DNA from: Lama glama
Taxonomy: Eukaryota
DNA length: 64,000 nucleotides
Assembly (NCBI GenBank): GCA_028534125.1
Contig: CM052816.1
Location: 30,816,001 to 30,880,000, forward strand
Direction of reading: 5' to 3'
The notes below the pieces were generated by a model, which was given only the letters and a program-made list of their open reading frames with translations, had not been told where the DNA came from and did not search any database. A program made the position numbers and the translations under genes. Positions 1,406 through 59,469 of the stretch are shown here, in pieces (position 1 is the first letter of the stretch; each line of letters starts with the position of its first letter).

Positions 1406-3984
1406 TGTCTTTAGTGTTTCTATCTATGAGGGAGATTAAAAAGACTCATGGAAGACCATCAGCCTCTGTCCCAGGTTACATCCATGACCTTAGCCTCACA
1501 AGCTACCCAAGTGTCTTTACAAATGACTTTTTTCACTTCTGATTATTCCGATTTCACTTGCCTGTCCGTTTGGTCCATAATCATTGTGTTTGTTTTGTTT
1601 TTATCATCTTCCCATAGCTACATTATGCTTTCTGAAACCGGCCTTCCACAATAAATCGTACCGCATAGCAGTCTAACTTCTTCTTCAAATTATTTTATTT
1701 CTTCTCTCTTATTCCATTCAGTCTTGCTGCCTCTCTGAGAAATGATCTCTTTTCAAATTCCAGTTTCTTTCAACATTTTTCACATATACTCTGATCCATG
1801 ATTCTTATTCCCAGAGGGGGAAAATAACAAAACAAAACCCAGCCTAACTGCTCAGATTTTCAATGATGAGTTATCTTGAAAAATTCATACACTCAACTTC
1901 CAACCTAAACCTCTTCTTTGTCACATTTGGAAAGATTAATCGGAGGATTAACACGTACAGTGTACATATATCTGAATACGCAGTTGGGAGTTTCAGGCTC
2001 AAATTATTCTACGAGCAAAACTAAAGACACTGAATTTTTAAAATTAACAGTTACATAAGCACTTAGATTATCTACAACATGTCACAATCCTTACATTTAT
2101 GGCAATTCTTTGGTGACTTTCTCAAAGTTGTTTATCAAATGAATCATGATCTTTTTCTCCCAGCTGCTTAATCTATATTTTGAGCTGTTTCTTGCGTTGC
2201 ATAACACAAATATAGAATTAAATTCTTCTGCTTTTCTGTAATTAAACAGAAGAGTAATTTCAGTATTTATATTTGCCATACAATCTTAGGCATATTTAGG
2301 AATGCTTATGGAGAAGATGCTATACAACAGCTACTTTTATGATTAAAAGGGAAGACAGTTTCAGCACTCTCCATTCCACTGTAATGAAGTAAATACAGAG
2401 AAACCTAGCTTAATTCATTTTACGAATTTTGTTTTACATGGTTTTGTGTGAATTGGACTCTTATGATTATTCTATTTCCAATAATTAATATTAAGAGTCA
2501 TCATCAAAATCTGAAGTACTGAAGTATAAGGAGTTAACACAATAACCTATTTTCAGGCACTTGAGACGAATTTATTTACTTCCAAATACCTAATAATGTC
2601 TTTTTAATAAAAGCACCTTCAGTAATTTGTGTATCTTATAATCTACATTATCCTTTTTAAGTATTATAAATTTAATAAAATTTTACTTTTTTTGGCTTGA
2701 TTTTATATTAGTGTATTTCTGAGCAAGTATCATAGAATAACTTGAGCTGAGTTCCCTTCCTCTGACCCTGGGACAACACAAGAGTCCTACTTTCCCTAGA
2801 GTTGATTATGTGCAGAAGACATTAAACAATCAAGTATTTGGCTAGAACGCATAAGCATTTCTGTTTCTTTCAGCTTTGGTTAAAGCCCATGTGTTCTTTA
2901 ACCTGCTTGTCTAAACTTGTCCCCAATAATCCCAAATCTGCAAAAAGCAGAAGAAAAGCAATCCATAGAATAGCCACCCAGCGCATATTCAGCAAAAGAA
3001 ACCAAGCCAGCAGACAAGCTTTACTGTGCAGAGATTCCTGATAGATTGTTCAAAATCTGCCTTCTAGGCACAAGTGTGACTCGGACACCTCCTCCTCCTT
3101 ACAACTGCTGGACGCTCCTCCACTCCAGCATTGTTTTTTTTAAAGGCCCTAAGTTTTAAAGACACTCACTTTGTTATGCAGCAATCCATAACTGAGATCA
3201 AAAACAGGGAATCACTTAATCAAACATAAAATAACAAGCTCTATAATTTGGGGAGTTCTATTTTCTGAGAGTAGCAATGACAAAATCCAACAGAGAAGAG
3301 AGAAAAACAAACTGTAAAATCCTAAGAATCTGATTCAACATTTCATCCTTCTAAAGTCACTAACTCTAACAACTCATTTTAAATGTGTCCTTTAATTTTA
3401 CATTCACAAATCTAATCACAACAACAATATACTATAATGAATTTTGTTAGGTATTTTATCTTTTGTATGTGACAGGCTATGTACCTCCCTACACCAACCT
3501 AATTCTTTGGTCTGTCCAACAGAAACCATTTTTTGAGATCATTGTTAAAATGTTGTGGTCTTTCCCAACCTAACTGTAGCTGGGTTCAGGGGTAACCTGA
3601 TAGCAGTGTGTTCAAAGGCGTCCCTTATCTCCTCCTCAATCCTGGGGGTTCCCTGCCATACCTCATGGGACACCCTAAATGCCTGTTCAGTCGTTCCAAT
3701 GCAAGCAGAAACTTGACAGTACTTGCCAAGACAATAAAGCAAAACTATAAGAGTGTAAAATAGTTTATCAAAAGGTGATACGTACAACATAACACTGAAA
3801 GCCCATAGGATTTTAAGGTTAATTGGATAATTTACAGTATTTTCTTGGCATAAAACAATGAGCAGAAAACAATTTTTCTCAGACATGATTAAATCCCTTT
3901 TGATCTAAAAATTTGGCATTTACCTCACTACATTTTATGTCTCCCAAGTGGTTGTCAAAGGGGGAAAAAAGGTGCAACCTGTCA

Positions 3985-4146
3985 TCGATTGTACCAAGTA
4001 TGCCACACAGATGAGGGATGTCGAGGGTAGGGGAGTATATATGTGTGGGTGGGGAGGGCCTTGTGCAAACTCTATTATTTTCTGCTCAGTTTTGTGGTGA
4101 ACCTGAAACTGCTCCAAAAATTAAAGTCTATTAATAAAATAAAAAT
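3985..4146 (+). mobile_element. Old L1M 3' terminus
   Basis: tctgctcagttttgtggtgaacctgaaactgctccaaaaattaaagtctatta plus an A-rich tail matches L1M 3' ends. Confidence 0.8.
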
Positions 4147-6160: not shown

Positions 6161-6568
6161 ACTTTAAAAATAGTTCTGTTAGCTTGCTTAAATCTATTTT
6201 TAGATTTTATGCAAAATGTTATGACAAGTTCCAAAAAAACCATTTATTCAGAGTCCTCGGCCACAACCAATCAGAAGAAGCAGATCGAAAGAAAGAAGAA
6301 AAAGTGCCCAAGAGGCTGATATGGACCAGTATCTACACGGTAAATGACAAATTAAATAATTTATACACTACAGACTCAAGAGCCTCAAAGTTATTGCCAT
6401 TTAACATAGGAGTTTTTTAATATTGCAAAGAAACTGGCCAGCACCCTCCCAGTTTTAGCACTGCTGTGCAGTATAATTATTGACTCTCCTTTGACAACCA
6501 GGAGTCACGATGCTCAAGAAGCACTGTAAAATTGGCAAAGGAGAATGCAGCACATTTCAGAATAAATC

Positions 6569-7010
6569 TTTTTTTTAATTAATCAATCAATTCATTAATT
6601 TTTAATTTTTTCCCCAGTTTTATTATGTGGGATTATTAGAGTTTGACTGCATGTACACATTATATTGCATATAAATACATCTAAACAGTATACTGCACAT
6701 TTTTTTAGTTTATATATATGTAATTACTGTTTCTAAGAACAGATAAGAGCTTTAGCTTTTGAACTTACATAGTTATCAAAGGAATAAAGCCAACTACAAA
6801 GTAAGAAATAACAGAATGCAGCAATCCAATCATAAAGGACAGTCAAATGGGCTTACACATATTCAAGAAGTCAAAATAATAATTAGTTCATTTGTGAATA
6901 AATAAAACTCAATTCAAGTTGTTACAGTAGATGTTGAACATTCAGTGTCTGGAGTGGCGCCCCCTTTCAGTCTTCACAGAGTAATACTGTCTGCTTAACT
7001 TTTCAGGTTA
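6569..7010 (-). pseudogene. Unidentified polyadenylated retroposed sequence (3'-UTR-like); 5' boundary uncertain
   Basis: Minus strand reads cccacatAATAAAactgggg then a degenerate A tail (6569-6611). Its 6692-6807 part aligns by eye with 47100-47220. Confidence 0.55.
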
Positions 7011-15680: not shown

Positions 15681-15712
15681 GTAAATCACAAGGGTCAAGA
15701 ATAGGAGTACAA

Positions 15713-15953
15713 GGATGTGAGAGCAATCTGGCTGCGACATCTGTCACCCCACTGATCTCCAGGGTTGATTCGGCTGATCTGGCTGGCTACGCTGGTGTCC
15801 CCTTCCTTCCTCACCACTCCACGTGCATCCCTCCCGAACCTGCGCACTTGGTCAAAGAGGACGACCTTCCCCGACAGAGCAGGACCATTCTTCTTGGTCA
15901 AGGGTATACGAGTAGCTACGCTCCCCTGCTAGAACCTCCAAAAAGCTCTCAAG
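15713..15953 (+). pseudogene. RN7SK: 7SK snRNA retropseudogene, 3'-truncated (about the first 240 nt), no poly(A) tail
   Basis: Starts ggatgtgag, contains ctgcgacatctgtcacccc, ccagggttgattcggctgatctggctggct and agggtatacgagtagct, and ends agctctcaag. Flanked by the direct repeat tcaagaataggagtacaag (15695-15713 and 15949-15967). Confidence 0.96.
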
Positions 15954-16149
15954 AATAGGAGTACAAGTGTCACACAACAGATTATGTATGTGTTAAACAA
16001 TCAACTTCATTATGATGAAGTTAAAAAAAAAGATATATACTAAAGAAAAAGCTAAGTCACTTGATAGGCCATTCTTGAAGGAACAGTCAGTATCATAAAT
16101 ACGCCAACTCTTACACCACATGTTACTTAATAAAGTCACAATAAAAATG

Positions 16150-18215: not shown

Positions 18216-18348
18216 GAGGGGAGGAAACAGCTCAAGTGGTAGCATGGTTAGCATGTAGGAGGTTTTGGGTTCAATCCCCAGTACTTCCTCTAAAAATAAG
18301 TAAGTGAATAAACCTAGTTACCTACCCCCCTCAAAAAAAAATAAAGTA
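18216..18348 (+). mobile_element. tRNA-derived SINE, camelid Vic-1-like
   Basis: A-box cagctcaagtgg, B-box gggttcaatccc, A-rich tail; perfect 14-bp TSD aaatgttcatgtgt (18202-18215, 18349-18362). Confidence 0.9.
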
Positions 18349-26720: not shown

Positions 26721-27814
26721 AGTGAGCATCAGGGATTTCTGCTCTATTCCTCTGCCTCCCTCTGACCCCTACCTCTTCTTATTCCAAGTAACATTATAGA
26801 AATAATTTAGGAATTGAAAGAGTGAACAGAGAGTAGCTTTCTGAAAGAAAATTCTCTCAAATAGAATATCCTTTGTAAGTGAAAAGATATTTGAACCACA
26901 GTCATTCAAAGAAACTTGGATTTTGGGGGGTTGATGTATTTTTCAGAAGGCACAGTCTCAGACTTTAAAGATGTATTATTTTGTAGAGAAAGCTCTAAGA
27001 AAGCTCTTTGCAAGTTAACATTTCCTACTCTTTAGCTAGGAGTTAAATTAAAGTAAGTCTTAATGAATTGTTTTTATCTTTAAAACTAAACTATAAATTC
27101 TGCATTTAATAATATGCTATTAGTTAGGCAATAAAGGAGAAAGTCACAGCAGTATTGCTAATTTCAGTGAAAATTTTCAATTGATATATCATAGTCAACA
27201 TATATAGTCAAATTATAAGTCTGTAACTGATGATTATATATTTGAATACAATTTTTTTCTACTTAACAAATGTTTAGTGAACATCTACTATATGCTAGTA
27301 GTCTAAATGCTTAGGACGAAAAGTAAGAAAACCAGAAAAAAAAAATCACTTCTTTCATGAAGCACACATTCTAGAGGTAAGGGGACATGTATTTTACATT
27401 ATGTATCCATTTGCATTTTATATCACATACTTGATTATCAGAAAAAATGAGTAACTACTTCAAACTTAAGTCAGTTTCATGGATTCCTGAGGGTGAGCAA
27501 GAAAATCTTAAAACATAGCATTATCATACAAAATATACAATAATGGTCAAGTAAATATAGCGTATTTCCCCACCATGAAGATGTTACAATGCTCTATAGT
27601 ATATTAAAATAAGACAATAGTTAAGACAAAAAATGAATTTAAATGATTTCCAATGAGTTTCACAGTTACGTGGAATCTTGAGAATCATGTAGCCCAAACT
27701 TCTATTTTGCATAATGTAAAAGCAAATATAAAAGCAAAAAAAACTCCAAACCTAAAAGATCCAAAAAAGCATGAGGTCAAGTAGGCATTAAGATGTAATT
27801 AAAAATTAGGGATT

Positions 27815-29908
27815 ATAAAAAGAATTATACACCCTAAACAAGTGAAATTTATGCAAGACTGGTACAACATCAGAAAATGGATTAATGCAATCCATCATAT
27901 CAATAGGTTGAAAAATCAAAATCATATGATTTCAAACATAAATGCGAGAAAATCATTTGACAAAGTCCAGCACCCATTCATGATAAAAACTCTCAATAAA
28001 CTAGGAACAGAGCGGAATCACCTCAACTTAATAACGAATCTCTAGAAAAACTTAGAACTGACATCATAATTAATAATGAGAAACTAAAAATTTCCTAAGA
28101 TCAGGTAAAAGGCAAGGATGTCCTTTCTCACCACTCCTTTTCAACAGTTTACCGGAATTATAAGCTAATGCAGTAAGAAAGGGAAATAAAAATACACAGA
28201 TTGGGAAGGAAAAACTAGTACTGTCTTTGTTCACAGATGACATGATCATCTATATAGAAGCCTCCTGCAAAAAAATCAACCAAAAAACTCCCAGAATGAA
28301 TAAGTGATTATAGAAAGCTTGAAATATACAAGGTTAACATACAGAGGTCAAACCTTTTCTATGTAACTTCAATGACCAAGTGGAATTTGAAATTAAAAAT
28401 ACCACATTTACAATAACAATCAAAAAATAAAATACTTGGGTATAATCCTAAAGCAATGTATAAGATATCTATGAGGAGAACTGCAAAAATCTAATGAATG
28501 AAATCAAAGAACTAAATAAAAGGACAGATATTGTATAGTATTATGTTTAGGAAGACTCAATATTGTCAAGATGTCAGTTCTTCCCAACTTGATCTGCAGA
28601 TTCAAAATAATTCCAATCAAACTTCCTGCAAGTTATTTCATGGACATTGAAATATTGATTCTAAAGTTTATATGGAGAGATAAAGACACAGAATAGCTAA
28701 TGCAATATTGAAGGAGAAGAGTAAGTCGGAAGGCTGCTGTTACTCAACTTTAAGAATTACTGGGGAAAGAGGGTAGGAAGGGATAAATCTGGGAGTTTGA
28801 TACTTATAAATGTTAGCCACTATACATAAAAACAGATTTTTTTAAAAAAGTTTCTTTTGTATAGCACAGGAAACTATGCTCAATATCTTGTAATAACCTT
28901 TAATTGAAAAACTATGAAAACAAATATATGTATGTATATGCAAGACTGGGACATTGTGCTGTAACACCAGAAATGGACACATTGCAATTGACTCTAATTT
29001 AAAAAAAAAAAGAGGAAAAAAAAAAGAGTTACTATAGACTTAGAGTAATCAGTACAGTGTGGTACTGCCAAAGGATAGATGAATAGATCAATAGTTTCAA
29101 ATAAAGAATCCAGAAACAGACCCACAAGAGTACAGACAATTGATCTCTGACAAAGGAGCAAAGGCCATACAATGGAACAAAGACAGTCCCTTCAACAGAT
29201 GGTGACGCAGCAACTGGACATCTACATGCAAAACCATGAATGTAGACACAAATCTTACACCCTTCACGTCAATTAACTCAAAATGGATCACTGGCCTAAA
29301 TGTAAAACACAAACATACAAAGATAGATAACAGAACACAGAAGATAACACAGGCGAAAACCTAGATGACCAATAGTATGGTTATGACTTTTTAAATACAG
29401 CACACCCAAAGCCATGACTCATGACAAAAATAACTGAAAATCCATACTTCATCAAAATTTAAAAATCCTGCTCTGTAGAAGACACCATCAAGAGAATGAG
29501 AAGACAAGCCACACTGGAAAAAAATAAAATACTTGCAGAAGGCAGATATGATAAAGAACTGTTATCCAAAATATACAAAGAACTTTTTAAATGCAGCAAT
29601 AAAACAACCTGATTAAAAGTGGGAAAATGATCTTCAAAGACCTCTCACCAAAGAAGATAGACGAATGGCAAATAAGCATTTTGAAAAGATGGCCCACATC
29701 TTATGTCATCAGGAAAATGGAAATTAAAACAATAATGAGGCAGCACTACACACTTACTGGAATGACCACAATCTGGAACACTGATGACACCAAATTCGAG
29801 GAGGACTTGAAACAGGAATTTTCATTCATTGCTGGAGGCAATGCAAAATGGTATAGCTATTTCGGAAGACAGTTTGGTGGTTTCTTACAAAACTAAACAC
29901 ACTCCTTA
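27815..29908 (+). mobile_element. L1 ORF2 (reverse transcriptase to C-terminal region), pseudogenised and interrupted by a younger L1 at 28762-29023
   Basis: ORF 27842-28045 ([26 protein letters not shown]...[17 protein letters not shown]) matches the L1 RT. ORF 29627-29896 (IRKMEIKTIMRQHYT) matches the ORF2 C-terminal IREMQIKTTMRYH motif. Confidence 0.95.
28762..29023 (+). mobile_element. Young 5'-truncated L1 3' end nested in an older L1
   Basis: gggataaatctgggagtttga...tgtatagcacaggaaactat...poly(A); TSD aagaattact (28752-28761) / aagagttact (29024-29033). Confidence 0.9.
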
Positions 29909-35239: not shown

Positions 35240-35487
35240 ATTTGGGAGTTTGAGATTTAAAGATACTAACTAGTATATATAAAATAAACAGCAAGTTTAT
35301 ACTGTACAGCTTAGGGAACTATATTTATCAATACCTTATAGTAACCTATAATGAAAAAGAATATGAAAACAAATAAATGAATGTATATGTATGACTGAAC
35401 TATTATGCTGTACACCAGAAATTGATACAACATTGAAAACTGACTATACTTCAATAAAAATAAATAAGTTAAAAAAATAAATAAAAA
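35240..35487 (+). mobile_element. Young 5'-truncated L1 3' end
   Basis: tttgggagtttgagattt...ctataatgaaaaagaatatgaaaac...tgctgtacaccagaaattgatacaacattg...aataaa and A tail; same family as 28762-29023. Confidence 0.9.
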
Positions 35488-35940
35488 GAATACTAGAGGA
35501 ACTTGAAACCTCTGGCACCTGTAGCTACAACTCCTAGCTAGGCCACCATAAATGCTTACACTATAGGTCTATGTACTTCAGTTCCTATTATCCTAACATC
35601 ACGTATGGACGACCAAAAAAACTAAAAGGCATGACAAAGGACAAGAAATACAGTCTAGCGACAAGCATCAGAATCAGGTATGACACAAATGCTAAAGACA
35701 GTAGGTAAGGAATTTGAAATAACCATAATTAATATGTCAACAACTGTAATAAAAATGTAGGCAGCATGCAAAATCAAATGAGTAATATACACAAAAAGAA
35801 ACTCCAAGAATAAAGCACAAGAAATTCTAGGAGGAAAAAAAAAAACCTAGCAAAAAAATGAGGAATGCCTTCAATTAGCTCATGAGTAGATGTAACATGG
35901 CCAAGCAAAGAATTAGTGAGCTTAAAAATAGGCCAAGAGA

Positions 35941-36032
35941 TAGCTCAGTGGTAGAGTGCATGCCTACCATGCCTAAGGTCCTGGGTTCAATCCCCAGTAC
36001 CTCCACTAAAAAAGAAAAAAAAAAAAGAAAAG
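35941..36032 (+). mobile_element. Short tRNA-derived SINE, camelid Vic-1-like
   Basis: tagctcagtggtagagtgcatgcct...ggtcctgggttcaatccccagtacctcca plus A tail; perfect 16-bp TSD aaaataggccaagaga (35925-35940, 36033-36048). Confidence 0.92.
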
Positions 36033-36390
36033 AAAATAGGCCAAGAGAAATTTCATAATCTGAAATGCATGAAACAAAGAATGAACAAGAACACAGTATC
36101 AAAGAACCAGGAAGCAATTTCAGTAGGTATAACAAGCACACCATTGTAATTCCAGAAGAAGAAGGAGAGAACAGAGCAGAATAAATATTGGACGTAATAA
36201 TGACATTGTCGTATTTTGTATGGGATTTGCAACAGGAAAAGAACAATAGATAAGACTAAGAAAATCTGAATAAAGTATACTCTTTGGTTAATAATATGTC
36301 ATCAATATTGGGTCATTTATTTTTGACAAACTATCATACTAATGTAAGATGTTAATCAATGGGGAAATGGCATATAAAGCATTTAAGCAT

Positions 36391-36837: not shown

Positions 36838-37069
36838 GAAGCTCTCAGTAATATCTTGGCAATTTTCAATAAATCTAAAACTATTCTAAAATTAAACGTT
36901 TTTTTTTTTAAGAATTCAAAAATATATCAGCCAATTAAAATGTATGGATTTTGATTCTGATCATTTTAAAACAGTAACATTTATGAGACAATTAGAATTT
37001 TGAACAAAGATTGGCTATTTAATGTTAATAAGTACTATGTTCATTTTTGGATAATATTTTATTTAAAAA

Positions 37070-37236
37070 AGTTTCTTCTGTATAGCACAGGGAACTATCT
37101 TCAGTATCTTGCAATGACCTCTAATGAAAAAGAATATGAAAATGAATATATGTATGTATATGCATGACTGACCTTGGGCTGTACACCAGAAATTGACACA
37201 TTGTAGCTGACCACTTCAATTAAAGAAAAAAAGAAA
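37070..37236 (+). mobile_element. Young 5'-truncated L1 3' end inside an old L1MC-like 3' region (~36930-37450)
   Basis: tgtatagcacagggaactat...aatgaaaaagaatatgaaaatgaatatatgtatgtatatgcatgactg...tgtacaccagaaattgacacattg plus A tail. Confidence 0.88.
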
Positions 37237-39596
37237 ACTTCTCCTATAGCAATGCAAACTGAAATATCTGTTGATGAGATAATGTATGTTAGGGACTTGC
37301 CGTAGATTAAGAGTAAAAGAGGGGAAGTAGGTAAGTTATGGATAAAGCCAGACTGACAGAAGTTAAAGGTTGCTTGCAATGGGGTACAGGTGCCCACGTC
37401 TCACTGTACTGTTCTGTCTGCTTTGTATATGGTAGACATTTATCTAATGAAGTATTTTAAGAAGTTTCATACGGAAACATGCACCACTTCTCAACTGCTG
37501 GTGTGGGCAATTAAGAGTAAACAAAATCAAAAAACAGACTAAATTTCTCTCAAAGCTAACCAAGGGCAGTTCAGCAAAAACATTTTAAAATACACAAACT
37601 TGGATTCTTTAAATACACTAATTTCATTTTCTTTAACAGCAACAACAAAATGCCCTTCAGTAACAGACCATCTGGGTGCTATGTGTGCCACCATACCTTG
37701 CATTCCTATTTGTTTGACACACAGATACGTAGATAAAGAATAGCAATGCACACAGATAAAAAAAAAAAAGGGGGCAAGGCTGCCTCTGAGCTAATATTGA
37801 ATTAAACTAGTAGACGGCAAGCAGCTGGGAGAAGCCCAGGCTGACACACCAAGTGAGACGGCGCAAGGGCTGCACGTGAGTGAAGCCATCATAGCATATT
37901 GGGCACAGGCTTTCTGCCTCTTCAGAAGCATTGTAAACAATTAGTAATGCGTTGCTTTAAAAAAAAAAAAAAAGAGTAAGAGTTGTAGTACAAATAAGAT
38001 GAAAGTCTAAACTGGTATGCAAAATAAATTCCATCTTACCTTTTCCTCACTAGCAAAGCCACTCTTTAAAGATAATTATACTTATTTACCTATCTAGGAA
38101 ACTACAAATAAATGCACGGTGTGCACACACACTATTTTGCATTCAAAGTCAGTATGACATATGAAATGTAAATCTTATTAAATAAGGGGCATGAGATTTT
38201 GGGAGGGAAAATAGAGCCTTTATGAAACAGTAAAGAAGGCTTTCAGAAGTAACTGAGACTCAAGTTGCATAATAAAAGAGGTTTAAAACTATTCTGGCTT
38301 AAGGCTTTATACACGTCATTAACATCTACCACTTCAAGTCACTTAAAATTAGGCATCCCAGCACTTAAGTTCATAGTTTCCTTGCTTCAAGAAAGAATAG
38401 GAGACCAAAAAAAAAAAAAAAAAAAAAGGAAAAGGTTAAAATACAGCATTTCAGTGCTGAAATATGGGAATACGGGCAAGAAACCTAAGGGAATATAGAA
38501 AGATACTAAATTGAATTTCTGTGCCTCACCAGATGTCATCTCACTTCTAGAATTTTCAGCCCTGTGAAAATTAGTAATGGTTGAAGAGGTGTAAAATTGT
38601 AAACCATGTTGAAAAAACGGGACAAGCTTCTATATGCTGGTGACAAGGACTCAAGAGAAACACAGCAGTCGCTAGCTGAGTCTGAATTAGGGTTTTTGAA
38701 AGGAGGCATCTCCACGTCCAAATGAGCCGCTCTTACAATAATTTTTTCTACTGAAACTTTGGGGGTAGTCTGTAATTTGAATTCATATGGGACATATGTT
38801 ATATTTGGTTCTGCATTAGCTATATGCACACAGATTTCCATGCTATGTGTTGTTATTTATGAGTACGGAGAAATTTAAGCCCAAGTCCTGATAACCGAAA
38901 TTGTTTCCAGCGTGAATTCTCCATCTCAAAAAATGTATAATTATGTGGCCCAAAATTTGGCACTGGGTATAGATCATTTTGAGCTGTGGAGGTTAAGGGA
39001 AGGAAAAGTTTTCAGAAACATTTGGAAGTCCAGGATACAATCACTATCATTACTGTGATATAAATTGTGGAAATTCATATTATCAGAAAGATACAGGGAG
39101 ATTTGTTTGGGAACACCTGGAGGATAACTAAGCAATCAAGCAAAAAGAGAGAGAGGAAAATGGCGAAAGGAGAATTTATTTCCTCAATGTTGATTCTGTT
39201 GCCAAGTGTCTCAATTAGGGAAGAAAATGCAACTAACAGACTTAGTGATTGGTGAAGTTTTTAATACATTGCCTCAACCCATGTTACTCAATATATAACT
39301 CAAATGGGCTTGAAAATGAACACTTTCACCTCACAGAAACTGTAAGCTTGGCTGAGAGAAGACAAACTAAAAACGCCGATCAAATCAAGGTAAATGAAGT
39401 GACTAGAACTGTAGAAACACTGAAGTCAATATGTGGCTGAATGTTTTTTTTCCCACAAATGTAGTCTCTAAGTTGTCCACGTGGGTGATGTCCACCCCCC
39501 CTTTAATATGAAAGCCTCGGAAGAGGTTAGTATGCAAACTCACCAAAGAAGACGCAGTCAGTCTCCCGCTGTAGTGACAACGATGAAGGTAAGAGC

Positions 39597-45500: not shown

Positions 45501-46717
45501 TACAAGATTTTAATTGTGACCTTTTCTGTAACCTAAAGAAAGATTATCTTCTGAGAGTATTTTCTAAAGTAAGGAGTTGTAAGTACTTGTCCAGTTTCTT
45601 TTATAAGCACATACATTTCTTTGTAAGATATTCTTTCTATCATGCTCTGAATAGTGCCAGATCATTAGGCACCAAAAAACAAACAAAAACACATTCCAAT
45701 TACATGGCTTCTATGACAGAGACAGAAAACATAGAACTGAGCACGACTGCAGTGCGATGCACACAGAAGCTGCTCTACACATGTTGCTTACAAGGATTTC
45801 TAATATAATTAGTTAATAGAATTACATTGGAAAGAATATTCGGATAAGCAGAATATCAGACTCCAATATAGTTTAGGGTTTTTACAAAAACTGGACGTTA
45901 CATAGTAAGAGTTCAGGCACTGGACTGAGACAGAACAGCTGACATCTAACTTTTCAGCACTTATATATGTCATATGGCTGTTACAAAGATAAATGAAATA
46001 ACACATGCAGAAAAGCTGGCATAAAGGTACCTATTTTGATCATTAAAATGATTGAAATTGCATTATCTATATAAACTGTGGAAAACAGAGGCAAGAAGAT
46101 GAGCTGGAGAATCAGATAGCGCTGTTTCAGTATTTGTCAGACCTATGACGTAGGATAGTTAATTAACTCCACTAAGTGTCCTTTCTTTTTTCTTAATTGC
46201 ATCTATAACATGAGACACAAATTCATGCTTTTAAACTGAGATGGACATTGCAACTAGCATGAAAACTGGCACACAGAACATACTAAAAAAACATGCTTCT
46301 TTTCACTTCCGCTCATGTACAATGCCAATTTTTCACTTATCTTTTTAACAGTGTCAGTTTTTAAAGACAAAAGAATATTTTCTACTAATTACATCAGAAT
46401 TTAATAGCCTATTTACTCGTAAGGGAGATTTCTCAGTGTTAGCTTTGGCCAAAGGTCCTTCACTGAAATAGTATTTAGGTGCTGATTTTTCTAAAATCAG
46501 TGATAAAAAACAAAAATTTAGAGGACACAGAATTATGCCACTACAGTATGAGATTTCAAAGTACAGTCTCTGATTTTATCCAGGTAGCTCAAAAGTCCTT
46601 AAAACTCCAGTGCTTTTTGTCCCCATCCACAAAATTTAAAAAATAAAAACAAACGTCCATGAATCCCTATTATCACCTAACTGCCAATATATTTCCACTA
46701 ATACCTAGATTTAGTTT

Positions 46718-47424
46718 GAGAGAAGTCTTTTTTTTTTTTTTTATCAACCAAAGTCCACAGTTTACATTGGGGTTCACTCTTGATGTTGTACTTCTATGGG
46801 TTTTGACAAATGCATAATGACATGTAGCCACCACTATAATATCATACAGAATAATTTCATTGCCCTAAAAAATCGCTTGTGCTCCATCTATTCATTCCTC
46901 CTTCCCTCCCTCTCCATAAACCCCTGGAAACCATGATCTTTTCATTGTTTTTGTAGCTGTGCCTTTTCCAGAATGTCATTTGGTTGGAATCACAGAGTTT
47001 GTAGCCTTTTCAGACTGGCTTCTTTCATTTAGTAATATGTCTTTTAAGTTTCTTCCATGTCTTTCATGGCTTGATAGCTCATTTCTTTTTTTTTTTTTAA
47101 CTGCCCATCTATTTTAAATTTACATATATGTACTGTTCATTGTTTCTAAGGATGTTTAGAGCTTTAGCTTTTTAAACTTACATAGTTATCAAAGGAAAAA
47201 AGCCAAACACAAAATAAGAATTAATTCAAAAAGACACATACATCCTGCTATTAGCAGCAACGCTATTTTCAATTACCAAGACATGGAAGCATCCTAAGTG
47301 CGTATGAATAGTTAGATAATGAAGATGCAGTATGTATGCATATATGTATGTGTGTGTATATACATATATGAAAACAACTCACCCTAAAAAAGAAGGATAT
47401 TTTGCGATTGGAGAGAAGTCTTTT
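46718..47424 (-). mobile_element. Composite L1-mediated retro-insertion with two poly(A) tracts inside one TSD
   Basis: TSD gagagaagtctttt at 46718-46731 and 47411-47424; T15 at 46728-46742; minus-strand L1MC-like piece 46743-47085; T13 at 47086-47098; unknown sequence 47099-47220; plus-strand L1 piece 47221-47410. Confidence 0.85.
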
Positions 47425-48359
47425 AAACAACAAATTTTCATTGTTCTAATCCTGCTCTTGGTAATTTAGACTTACAGCCCTGATATTTTTCATCAATTCT
47501 AAAGGAATATAGAGACCAGTGAGAAATATTAGATGCAGTGAGAAAGAGGGAAAAGAAATTTTTCCTTTGTTAAACTTCACTTACTTTACCAATGTTCTGT
47601 TAAATTTATTTGCATGATCTATAAATTTCTAGTTATCACATTATTTGTAGTAGAGTGGAAACAATGGTTAACTATGCATTTTTCTTCATGATTTTAGGTG
47701 TAACCAAGAACTCAGAATATCTTAAATAATAAGCCATTCATGTCTACCCTCAGTAAAATCAGTGCTTTGAAATGAATAAATAGCGATTTTTTTTAACCAA
47801 TTTTGGAGGTACATGAATGTTTAATTCCTAGAGAGCCTAATGGAGACCTCACTCTCACTGATTTTTGCTTTTTAAATAGATGTCAATTTACTAGCAAAAA
47901 TGGAAAAGGACAGAGTTTTTCATTTCTCCCACCAGGATTTATTTTCTTCAGCATCTCCTCTCCTGCACATCTCATTTATTACAGCTGGAAAAAAATAATT
48001 GTGATTAATGACCTAATTTGAAGCAAAATGAGTTTGATTAATCAACATTTTCTTATAAAGTGTCACTTTTGGAGCAAGAATTTTTTGTGACAGTTTATGG
48101 GTATTTGTAATCTCTAAGAACCTGTTAAGCTTCTTGAATACACTGCCTATAAGTTTGTCACAATTCACTGATTTAAAAGTGTTTTGCACAGTTTACAGAG
48201 GAGTAATTTAATACAAAATATATCAGTAATACTGCCTTTGTCACAAGGCATAACTTTTGTAGAGTTGAATCAGAGTCTGTTTCCTCTATGCATATTGAGT
48301 ATTACTAGCATACATGTCATTAGATCCAACTGAAAGATGCCATTTGCTGCCTAACCACA

Positions 48360-58474: not shown

Positions 58475-59400
58475 ATCTAAGCTTCCACAAAAAGATGTTA
58501 GGAAAAAAATAAAAGAGCAAAACAAACCCTCAGGAAGTAGAAGAAAAGAAGTAAATATAAGAGTAGGAAACAGACAACTGAGAAAACCAGCAAAGCCAAA
58601 AATAAGTTCTTAATAATATTTAATGTAATTGATAAACCTAGCAAAAATTAAGAAATAAAGAGAGAAAATATACAGTACCAACATCAAGAATAAAAAAAAT
58701 AGCTCATCACTACAGATCCTATAGTCATTAAAAGAAAAATAAATATTAGCAATACTTTCATAGCATAAATTAACAATGTAGAAGACATGAAATTGTTGTT
58801 GACCTTAAGAAAAAAGAATTTATAAAATAAACATATAAGAGGTAGAAATGAATTGAACTTGTAATTGAAAGGCGTCTTACAAAAATAATTATGGGCAGAT
58901 AGATGGGCATAGTATTTCCCATGATTACTGTTAAACATACAAATTAAAAATAATGCCAGTATTACACAAACATCTTTAGAAAATAGAGGATGGAAGTAAA
59001 CACTATTCAACTAATTTTATGAAGTTGGAATAATCCTAAAACCAAAGCATGACAAGGACACTTCAGGGAAAAAAATATATAAATCAATATTCCTCATGAA
59101 AAAAATTCCTTACTAAGTCTAAACAAATTAAGTTCAGAAATATACAAAACAAGATAATAAATCATGGACAGTGGAGTGTATCCAGGAAGGCAAACTTGAT
59201 TTTATAGTTAAATATTAATAAATGTAATTTATCACATTTTAGAATAAAGGAGAGAAATTGTGTTATAATCTCAATAGGTATAGAAAAAGTAATTTGACAA
59301 AATTCAGCATCTATTTATAATAAAATCACTAAGCCATCTAGCCAAAGAAGGAAACTTTCTGAAGGTGCTAATGGGTACCTAGCAAAAACTTACAGCTAAC

Positions 59401-59469
59401 TTTTTTTTTAATTGAAGTATGGTCTATTTAAAATGTTGTGTTAGTTTCTGGTGTACAACACAGTGATTC
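59401..59469 (-). mobile_element. Very short 5'-truncated young L1 3' end
   Basis: T tract followed by aattgaagtatggtctatttaaaatgttgtgttagtttctggtgtacaacacagtgattc; flanks cagctaac / cagcttaac. Confidence 0.8.

Follow-up and report, generated by a model that had tools for sequence, protein, structure and literature searches.

A composite L1-mediated insertion in the llama genome that may hold a piece copied from the neighbourhood of its target site

L1 insertions that carry sequence from around their target within a single target-site duplication (TSD) have been described, and the closest cases are considered here. In one somatic adenoma clone with expression data, a TSD-bounded somatic L1 insert also contains pre-mRNA that had been transcribed close by, an event ascribed to a strand switch of the reverse transcriptase (Nam et al., 2023; PMC10191854, Ext. 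Data Fig. 9g). In cell lines over-expressing L1, two or more templates were joined within one TSD and extra cDNA was present at the inversion junction (Mendez-Dorantes et al., PMC11702581). Nine inserts made from two RNAs were reported there, as was one with two extra cDNAs at an inversion junction; pieces in the same orientation were attributed to template switch and those in opposite orientation to end-joining. The genomic templates near the site were located within about 1 kb (Fig. S10B), and pieces from other chromosomes were found too (Fig. S10A and C). Templated insertions at somatic L1 (10.1101/2024.08.27.596794) contain a non-L1 template of less than 250 bp which is copied in during integration; as a rule these templates are found no more than 15 bp from the site, and annealing of DNA is given as the cause. 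In the tripartite chimeric retrogenes of Gogvadze et al. (2007; PMC2104539), three unrelated pieces share one TSD of 14–16 bp, and double template jumps between abundant RNAs (U6, B2, SINE, LINE) are invoked to account for them. Finally, 3' transductions, either partnered or orphan (PMC13009371), can combine two A-tracts with flank-like content, and the second tail of a partnered transduction usually starts 10–30 nt after a poly(A) signal. In the accessible part of a catalogue of human L1 chimeras (10.1101/2025.02.02.635956, PMC13174262) near-target capture is not described, and a literature search weighted to open-access papers revealed no germline capture at tens of kilobases.

The insert analysed here is located in a window of 64,000 nucleotides (64 kb) of the genome of Lama glama (GCA_028534125.1, contig CM052816.1, positions 30,816,001 to 30,880,000), and it resembles each of these systems in part. 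With the case of Nam et al. it shares the TSD and the neighbourhood-like sequence; in contrast to that somatic event, it is an old germline insert probably present in five coded organisms, with three pieces, an internal A-run and a presumed RNA origin. The number of templates and the extra piece at the inversion junction recall the cell-line inserts, and the short non-L1 module recalls the templated insertions, whereas its candidate source lies 40.4 kb away. Like the tripartite retrogenes it comprises three unrelated pieces, of which, unlike in those, one is inverted and one appears to be local. With transductions it has in common the two A-tracts, the flank-like content and a tail placed where an old repeat does not naturally end. 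It differs in that its first A-tract is not preceded by the 3' end of an L1, that no canonical signal was seen ahead of the last tail, and that the captured sequence would derive from beside the target and not from beside a known source L1. The locus represents a real complex insertion made by L1, most likely a one-off of a known kind rather than a member of a retroposon family. The features of the insert are collected in Table 1.

Table 1. Features of the composite insert and of the candidate source of its middle module (positions within the 64-kb window)
Feature	Position	Strand	Remarks
5' (upstream) TSD copy	47408..47424	-	exact over 14 bp (47411-47424), one mismatch over 17 bp; TTT ahead of it
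Inverted L1 ORF2 C-terminal fragment	47220..47410	+	131/182 sites identical to window L1 62588-62776; PDB match
Middle module	47100..47224	-	probable copy of window 6692-6811; overlaps L1 piece by ~5 nt
Internal A13	47086..47098	-	T13 on + strand; in register with native A-run of L1
L1M-type 3'-region fragment, sense	46743..47085	-	215/315 sites identical to window L1 13114-13455
Terminal poly(A)	46732..46742	-	11 A plus 4 common to TSD; T15 at 46728-46742 on + strand
3' (downstream) TSD copy	46715..46731	-	exact 14 bp at 46718-46731
Candidate local source of module	6692..6811	-	at a distance of 40.4 kb; lacks a tail and a neighbouring L1
TATAAA poly(A)-signal variant, candidate cryptic site	6709..6714	-	23 nt before similarity to insert ends

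The insert is flanked by a direct repeat of exactly 14 bp, the extension of which to 17 bp costs one mismatch. An exact 14-mer repeat alone is weak evidence, since 12 such pairs spaced within 7 kb exist in the window. The repeat was nevertheless accepted as a true TSD because the tail adjoins it on one side and an L1 end on the other, and because an endonuclease site marks its start: TTT precedes the upstream copy on the minus strand, giving TT/AAAA, the site of the L1 endonuclease. The terminal poly(A) abuts the TSD, the length of which falls in the range of 10–20 bp of TPRT insertions. In a by-eye reading of the insert, neither AATAAA nor ATTAAA was seen ahead of this tail. An earlier note, made from the letters of the window, had proposed a single L1-mediated insertion of several unrelated pieces, and the TSD, the TT/AAAA site, the tail and the three distinct modules that were found bear this out. 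The same holds for its endonuclease site, its internal A13, its stretch of about 190 bp of antisense L1 ORF2 3' region and its stretch of about 343 bp of old L1 sequence, presumably L1MC-like. Its 'perfect 14-bp TSD' is right for the exact 14 bp, yet the full repeat is longer and imperfect; likewise, the run of 15 A in its 'A15' tail exists, but 4 of the 15 belong to the TSD.

Next to the upstream TSD copy lies the inverted L1 piece, which has the orientation opposite to both A-tracts. Its top PDB matches correspond to residues ~1188–1213 of human L1 ORF2p (E 0.029). The piece is decayed, with stops in all three frames, and contains a (TA/TG)n expansion. At the other end of the insert, the sense L1M-type piece, presumably L1MC-like, comprises 343 bp and presumably stops short of the natural L1 3' end. 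The inverted piece scores 100 against the L1 at 62 kb and 41 against the one at 0.5 kb, while the tested part of the sense piece scores 86 against the L1s at 13 and 0.6 kb and 44 near 62 kb. By these alignments the two pieces belong to different subfamilies, and an origin of both from one element was rejected on the same ground, the best in-window matches belonging to different subfamilies. No close donor of either piece was detected within the 64-kb window, where the best matches reach 68–77%. The TSD-side end of the inverted piece (47385–47410) overlaps, in L1 coordinates, by ~25 nt with the start of the sense L1M piece (47060–47098), both being located at the A-run of L1. Classic twin priming gives such an arrangement, yet the pieces are of different subfamilies; the overlap may be due to chance or to pausing at the A-run. 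Separately, an element at 3975–4145 (+), presumably an L1MC-like 3' end, starts on the opposite strand about where the L1M piece of the insert stops, a correspondence that is probably due to chance.

The piece in the middle, which the earlier note had left as about 120 bp of unidentified sequence, has a homologue in the window. It aligns on the same strand to 6692–6811 with 80% identity over 126 columns (E 3e-24), 101 of the 119 aligned sites being identical (K2P 0.17), and the similarity ends sharply at both module junctions. The local (SW) score of this match is 143; the 99th percentile is 43, and the second-best match in the window also scores 43. As the earlier note had stated, the module is unlike the ordinary L1 3' ends of the window, its best score among them lying at that 99th percentile of the background. 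Neither a tail nor an L1 was present beside 6692–6811, and its flanks gave no other match in the 64-kb window at E below 1e-5. The Rfam search of the insert gave no match, and no second copy of either internal junction was found within the window. An 18-base motif common to both module copies was detected at 29 metagenome loci, in a collection that possibly holds no camelid DNA; none of the 29 extends beyond 31 columns, as expected from chance. The substitutions between both copies comprise 8 transitions and 10 transversions, a ratio low for neutral mammalian divergence in a small sample from an indel-rich alignment.

The module is taken as captured at this site chiefly because of the odds of the alternative. 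Were the source single-copy, an element inserting at random would fall within 40.5 kb of 6692–6811 with a probability of 3–4e-5, and for a repeat family to place a second member in 64 kb with a chance of 5%, ~1,700 copies would be required. A dispersed family is still compatible with the divergence of the module, since ordinary repeat pairs in the window are 78–85% identical and thus fall in the same band. Like a local co-insertion, the insert has a non-L1 piece that maps 40.4 kb away on the same strand. Like a twin-primed L1, it has an inverted 5' segment with microhomology at both ends, whereas the sense neighbour of this segment is local non-L1 DNA and the distal sense L1 piece is of another subfamily. 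Ordinary twin priming is thus insufficient, as had been suspected, given that the module adjoining the inverted piece matches no L1 3' end of the window. For the same reason the insert departs from a partnered 3' transduction, in which the internal poly(A) would follow an L1 3' end and not such a module.

The junctions were inspected for traces of the joining steps. At the 5' junction, CAAA is common to the target and to the in-window homologue of the L1 piece, corresponding to a microhomology of ~4 nt if one later substitution in the insert is assumed. At the junction between L1 and module, the two alignments overlap by ~5 nt. Short microhomologies are usual at both places in inverted inserts and also common in truncated ones (PMC2912911, PMC11702581), and for this reason they fit twin priming but do not prove it. 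The internal A13 follows the non-L1 module and no L1 3' end. It is at the same time in register with the native A-run of L1, the same hexamer being located 25 nt after the run in the insert and in the 62-kb L1, and part of it may be L1-derived on this alignment. It may be a native run lengthened by slippage, of the kind reported for ORF2p at A-tails (PMC3415434), the tail of a donor that had inserted at this run, which resembles an endonuclease site, or the tail belonging to a second RNA to which a T-ended cDNA had jumped. The claim that double tails establish a 3' transduction is not supported for this insert, since A13 follows non-L1 DNA in register with the L1 A-run and since switches between RNA templates in the same orientation are also described (PMC11702581). 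On the side of the local source, the TATAAA variant before the end of similarity gives modest support to a polyadenylated local RNA; it was noticed post hoc and amounts to about 1 in 12, as 8% of random positions show such a placement for the four strongest hexamers and 21% for any of 13 variants.

The base composition of the host region was considered with respect to transcription. Intronic L1 elements are biased towards the antisense orientation, and the sense strand of introns has an excess of T over A and of G over C. In the window, 12 L1-like blocks were picked by hand; 11 of them show an excess of A on the plus strand, one of these barely (skew 0.03). In the 46,424 bases that remain once the blocks are masked, the AT skew is +0.044 ± 0.006 and the GC skew -0.017 ± 0.008. 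Taken together, the L1 strand bias and the base skews indirectly suggest a minus-strand transcription unit, and the source of the module would then be situated within this unit, at 40 kb on the downstream side of the insertion. A skew of this kind could also arise from old repeats that were not recognised. A Pfam scan of 56 of the 187 ORFs yielded three sub-threshold matches and no convincing trace of a host gene, and a rough splice scan for host exons delivered 10 weak candidates and no clear exon. With no coding exon found in the 64 kb despite the skews, the region would correspond to a large intron or to a long non-coding transcript. Stretches rich in Lys, Glu and Arg with an exon-like appearance lie on the plus strand at 6203–6339 and 2940–3120, near the module source, and have no Pfam match. 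An exon-like segment of 25 nt with a GTAAGT donor was noticed at 6769–6793 (-), inside the local source. It is ordinary, an equal being held by 3.6% of minus-strand 120-mers by a rough score. An origin of the module by splicing was rejected, since this segment is not rare and the insert retains sequence upstream of its acceptor.

The reading preferred here, with a probability of about 0.55, is that of one old L1-mediated (TPRT) insertion in which at least two templates were joined at the site, one of them local; this one was probably a host pre-mRNA of the minus strand, cleaved at a cryptic poly(A) site. In this reconstruction, for which we infer a single event, an RNA template and an order of steps, ORF2p would have nicked the target at TT/AAAA, begun cDNA synthesis at the poly(A) of an RNA with an old L1M fragment at its end, and copied 343 nt. 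The priming RNA could have been a read-through L1 transcript or another RNA. At the A-run of L1M, the T-ended cDNA would have switched to another template of this locus, from which 120 nt would have been copied. That template would most likely have been a host pre-mRNA of the minus strand with cleavage and polyadenylation near 6691, local DNA being less likely. The other end of the target would have primed on L1 RNA via the microhomology of ~4 nt, as in the twin priming reportedly described by Ostertag and Kazazian in 2001; alternatively, the inverted piece could stem from a further jump of the enzyme to antisense L1 within the same pre-mRNA. Both ends would then have been joined through the microhomology of ~5 nt, and the product would be a dead single-copy fossil without evident function. 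The more specific proposal of a capture in the germline, in which ORF2p passed from its original RNA to a nascent pre-mRNA of the host and the T-run of the cDNA paired with the tail which this pre-mRNA had gained by cleavage at a cryptic intronic poly(A) site, 40 kb further down the same transcription unit, is put forward tentatively, with odds clearly below even. Against the preferred reading stands the distance itself, since templated inserts are described mostly within 15 bp of the site, compared with 40.4 kb here. Furthermore, the copying between 6.7 and 47.1 kb could in principle have run in either direction, and the 8:10 ratio of transitions to transversions counts against this reading too.

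An orphan 3' transduction is the first of the alternatives to be weighed, and it is considered unlikely. According to it, an L1 elsewhere was read into an old mosaic flank composed of antisense L1, a repeat or paralogous piece and L1M, and the match at 6.7 kb is another member of the same family. All three pieces are indeed old, with 68–85% identity to their best in-window matches, the repeat pairs of the window show the same range of identity as the module, and A13 could be an expansion of the native A-run of L1. Orphan transductions are also common, accounting for 705 of 6,418 somatic events; their median length is 335 bp (PMC13009371). However, the model requires ~1,700 or more copies of the repeat, and the copy at 6.7 kb shows no tail or obvious repeat ends and has flanks that match nowhere else in the 64 kb. 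If the donor was paralogous instead, the L1M piece must postdate the duplication; the identity of 85% speaks against this, as judged from the age that we presume for L1MC.

The earlier note had favoured a second-generation copy: a chimeric donor made of inverted L1, module and poly(A) would have resided in an L1MC elsewhere, been read through and re-retroposed, possibly as a composite family. This is rated as less likely still. Two A-tracts within one TSD are what it predicts, and two tails are usual in partnered transductions (PMC13009371). A donor inserted at the native T/AAAAA of L1, which is an endonuclease site, would also give an A-run in register. Against it stands the return to within 40 kb of the origin of the module, with a probability of ~4e-5 if the module is single-copy, unless the donor was also local. 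In addition, a remnant of the first-generation TSD is absent at the 5' end, a promoter-bearing part was not seen, neither junction recurs within the 64-kb window, and a search of the same window for a donor of the insert was negative.

Lower again in probability is a model with a lost allele, in which an unfixed, 5'-truncated plus-strand L1 at ~6811 was transcribed on the minus strand into an RNA comprising antisense L1, module and poly(A). One jump from the L1M-ended RNA would then suffice. On the plus strand, an endonuclease-like AC/AAAA is found ~15 nt before the junction of L1 and module, against a background of 8.8% and with a list of motifs drawn up post hoc; the local copy, on the other hand, reads AC/AAAG at this spot, neither an L1 nor a TSD scar exists at 6811 today, and the loss of the allele is required. 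An ordinary 5'-inverted L1, with the 3' UTR end of a camelid L1 subfamily as the module and a short transduction behind it, is scarcely credible: about 30% of L1 inserts are 5'-inverted (PMC2912911) and the geometry and microhomologies fit, but no L1 3' end of the window aligns to the module above background (43; 99th percentile 43), the L1 closest to the inverted piece reaches a normal 3' end at ~63156 without the module, and the sole in-window homologue of the module has no tail.

The age of the insert was estimated from the divergence of the module from 6692–6811. At an alternative rate of 2e-9 per year, the K2P of 0.17 (rough error ± 0.04) would correspond to ~40 Myr. It becomes ~17 Myr at 5e-9 per year, the rate implied by a survey of camelid repeats (PMC8605555). 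At an identity of 85%, a match of 14/14 in the TSD has a P of 0.10 and one of 16/17 a P of 0.25, and with these values the clean TSD is compatible with one old event and does not require two generations. The spread of the insert was assessed by words sampled from 46300–47850, of which the insert makes up 45%. Fourteen DNA runs (five coded organisms and seven studies, with 24 runs listed) share 0.76–0.82 of the 148 sampled words, while six RNA runs, sharing 0.05–0.13, were left out of the inference. A genome free of the insert could share at most ~0.55 of the words; since the observed shares exceed this ceiling, the insert is probably present in all five coded organisms.

A single dead insert by itself changes little; the two tails within its TSD caution that such a structure need not mean 3' transduction. 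If local capture is true, the locus would show, in the germline and over tens of kilobases, a process that we found described only as rare events in somatic tissue or cell lines, mostly near the site. TSD-bounded inserts with a non-repeat part from within ~100 kb would then be expected to be biased to the sense orientation of the host gene and to end at poly(A) signals. If the captured template was a pre-mRNA, inserts of this kind would constitute a minable record of the reach of local RNA capture and of ancestral germline intronic poly(A) sites, and some double-tailed 'transductions' would have been built at the target.

Several other elements were noticed in the window. A retrocopy of 7SK is located at 15695–15967 (Rfam RF00100, 205 bits), with an exact direct repeat of 19 bp at 15695 and 15949. 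The 7SK copy between the repeats measures ~235 nt, is truncated at its 3' end and lacks a poly(A), and in this it resembles a tailless retropseudogene. A tRNA-derived SINE with an exact TSD of 16 bp was found at 35925–36048 (Rfam tRNA match at 35936–36005, which we take to be Vic-1-like), and a second copy, 84% identical, at 18229–18296. An older L1 at 27.8–29.9 kb, with an RVT_1 match at 27803–28042 (E 1.3e-5), harbours a nested short L1 3'-end copy at 28760–29030, to which the short L1 3' ends at 35240–35480, 37040–37240 and 59397–59460 are related.
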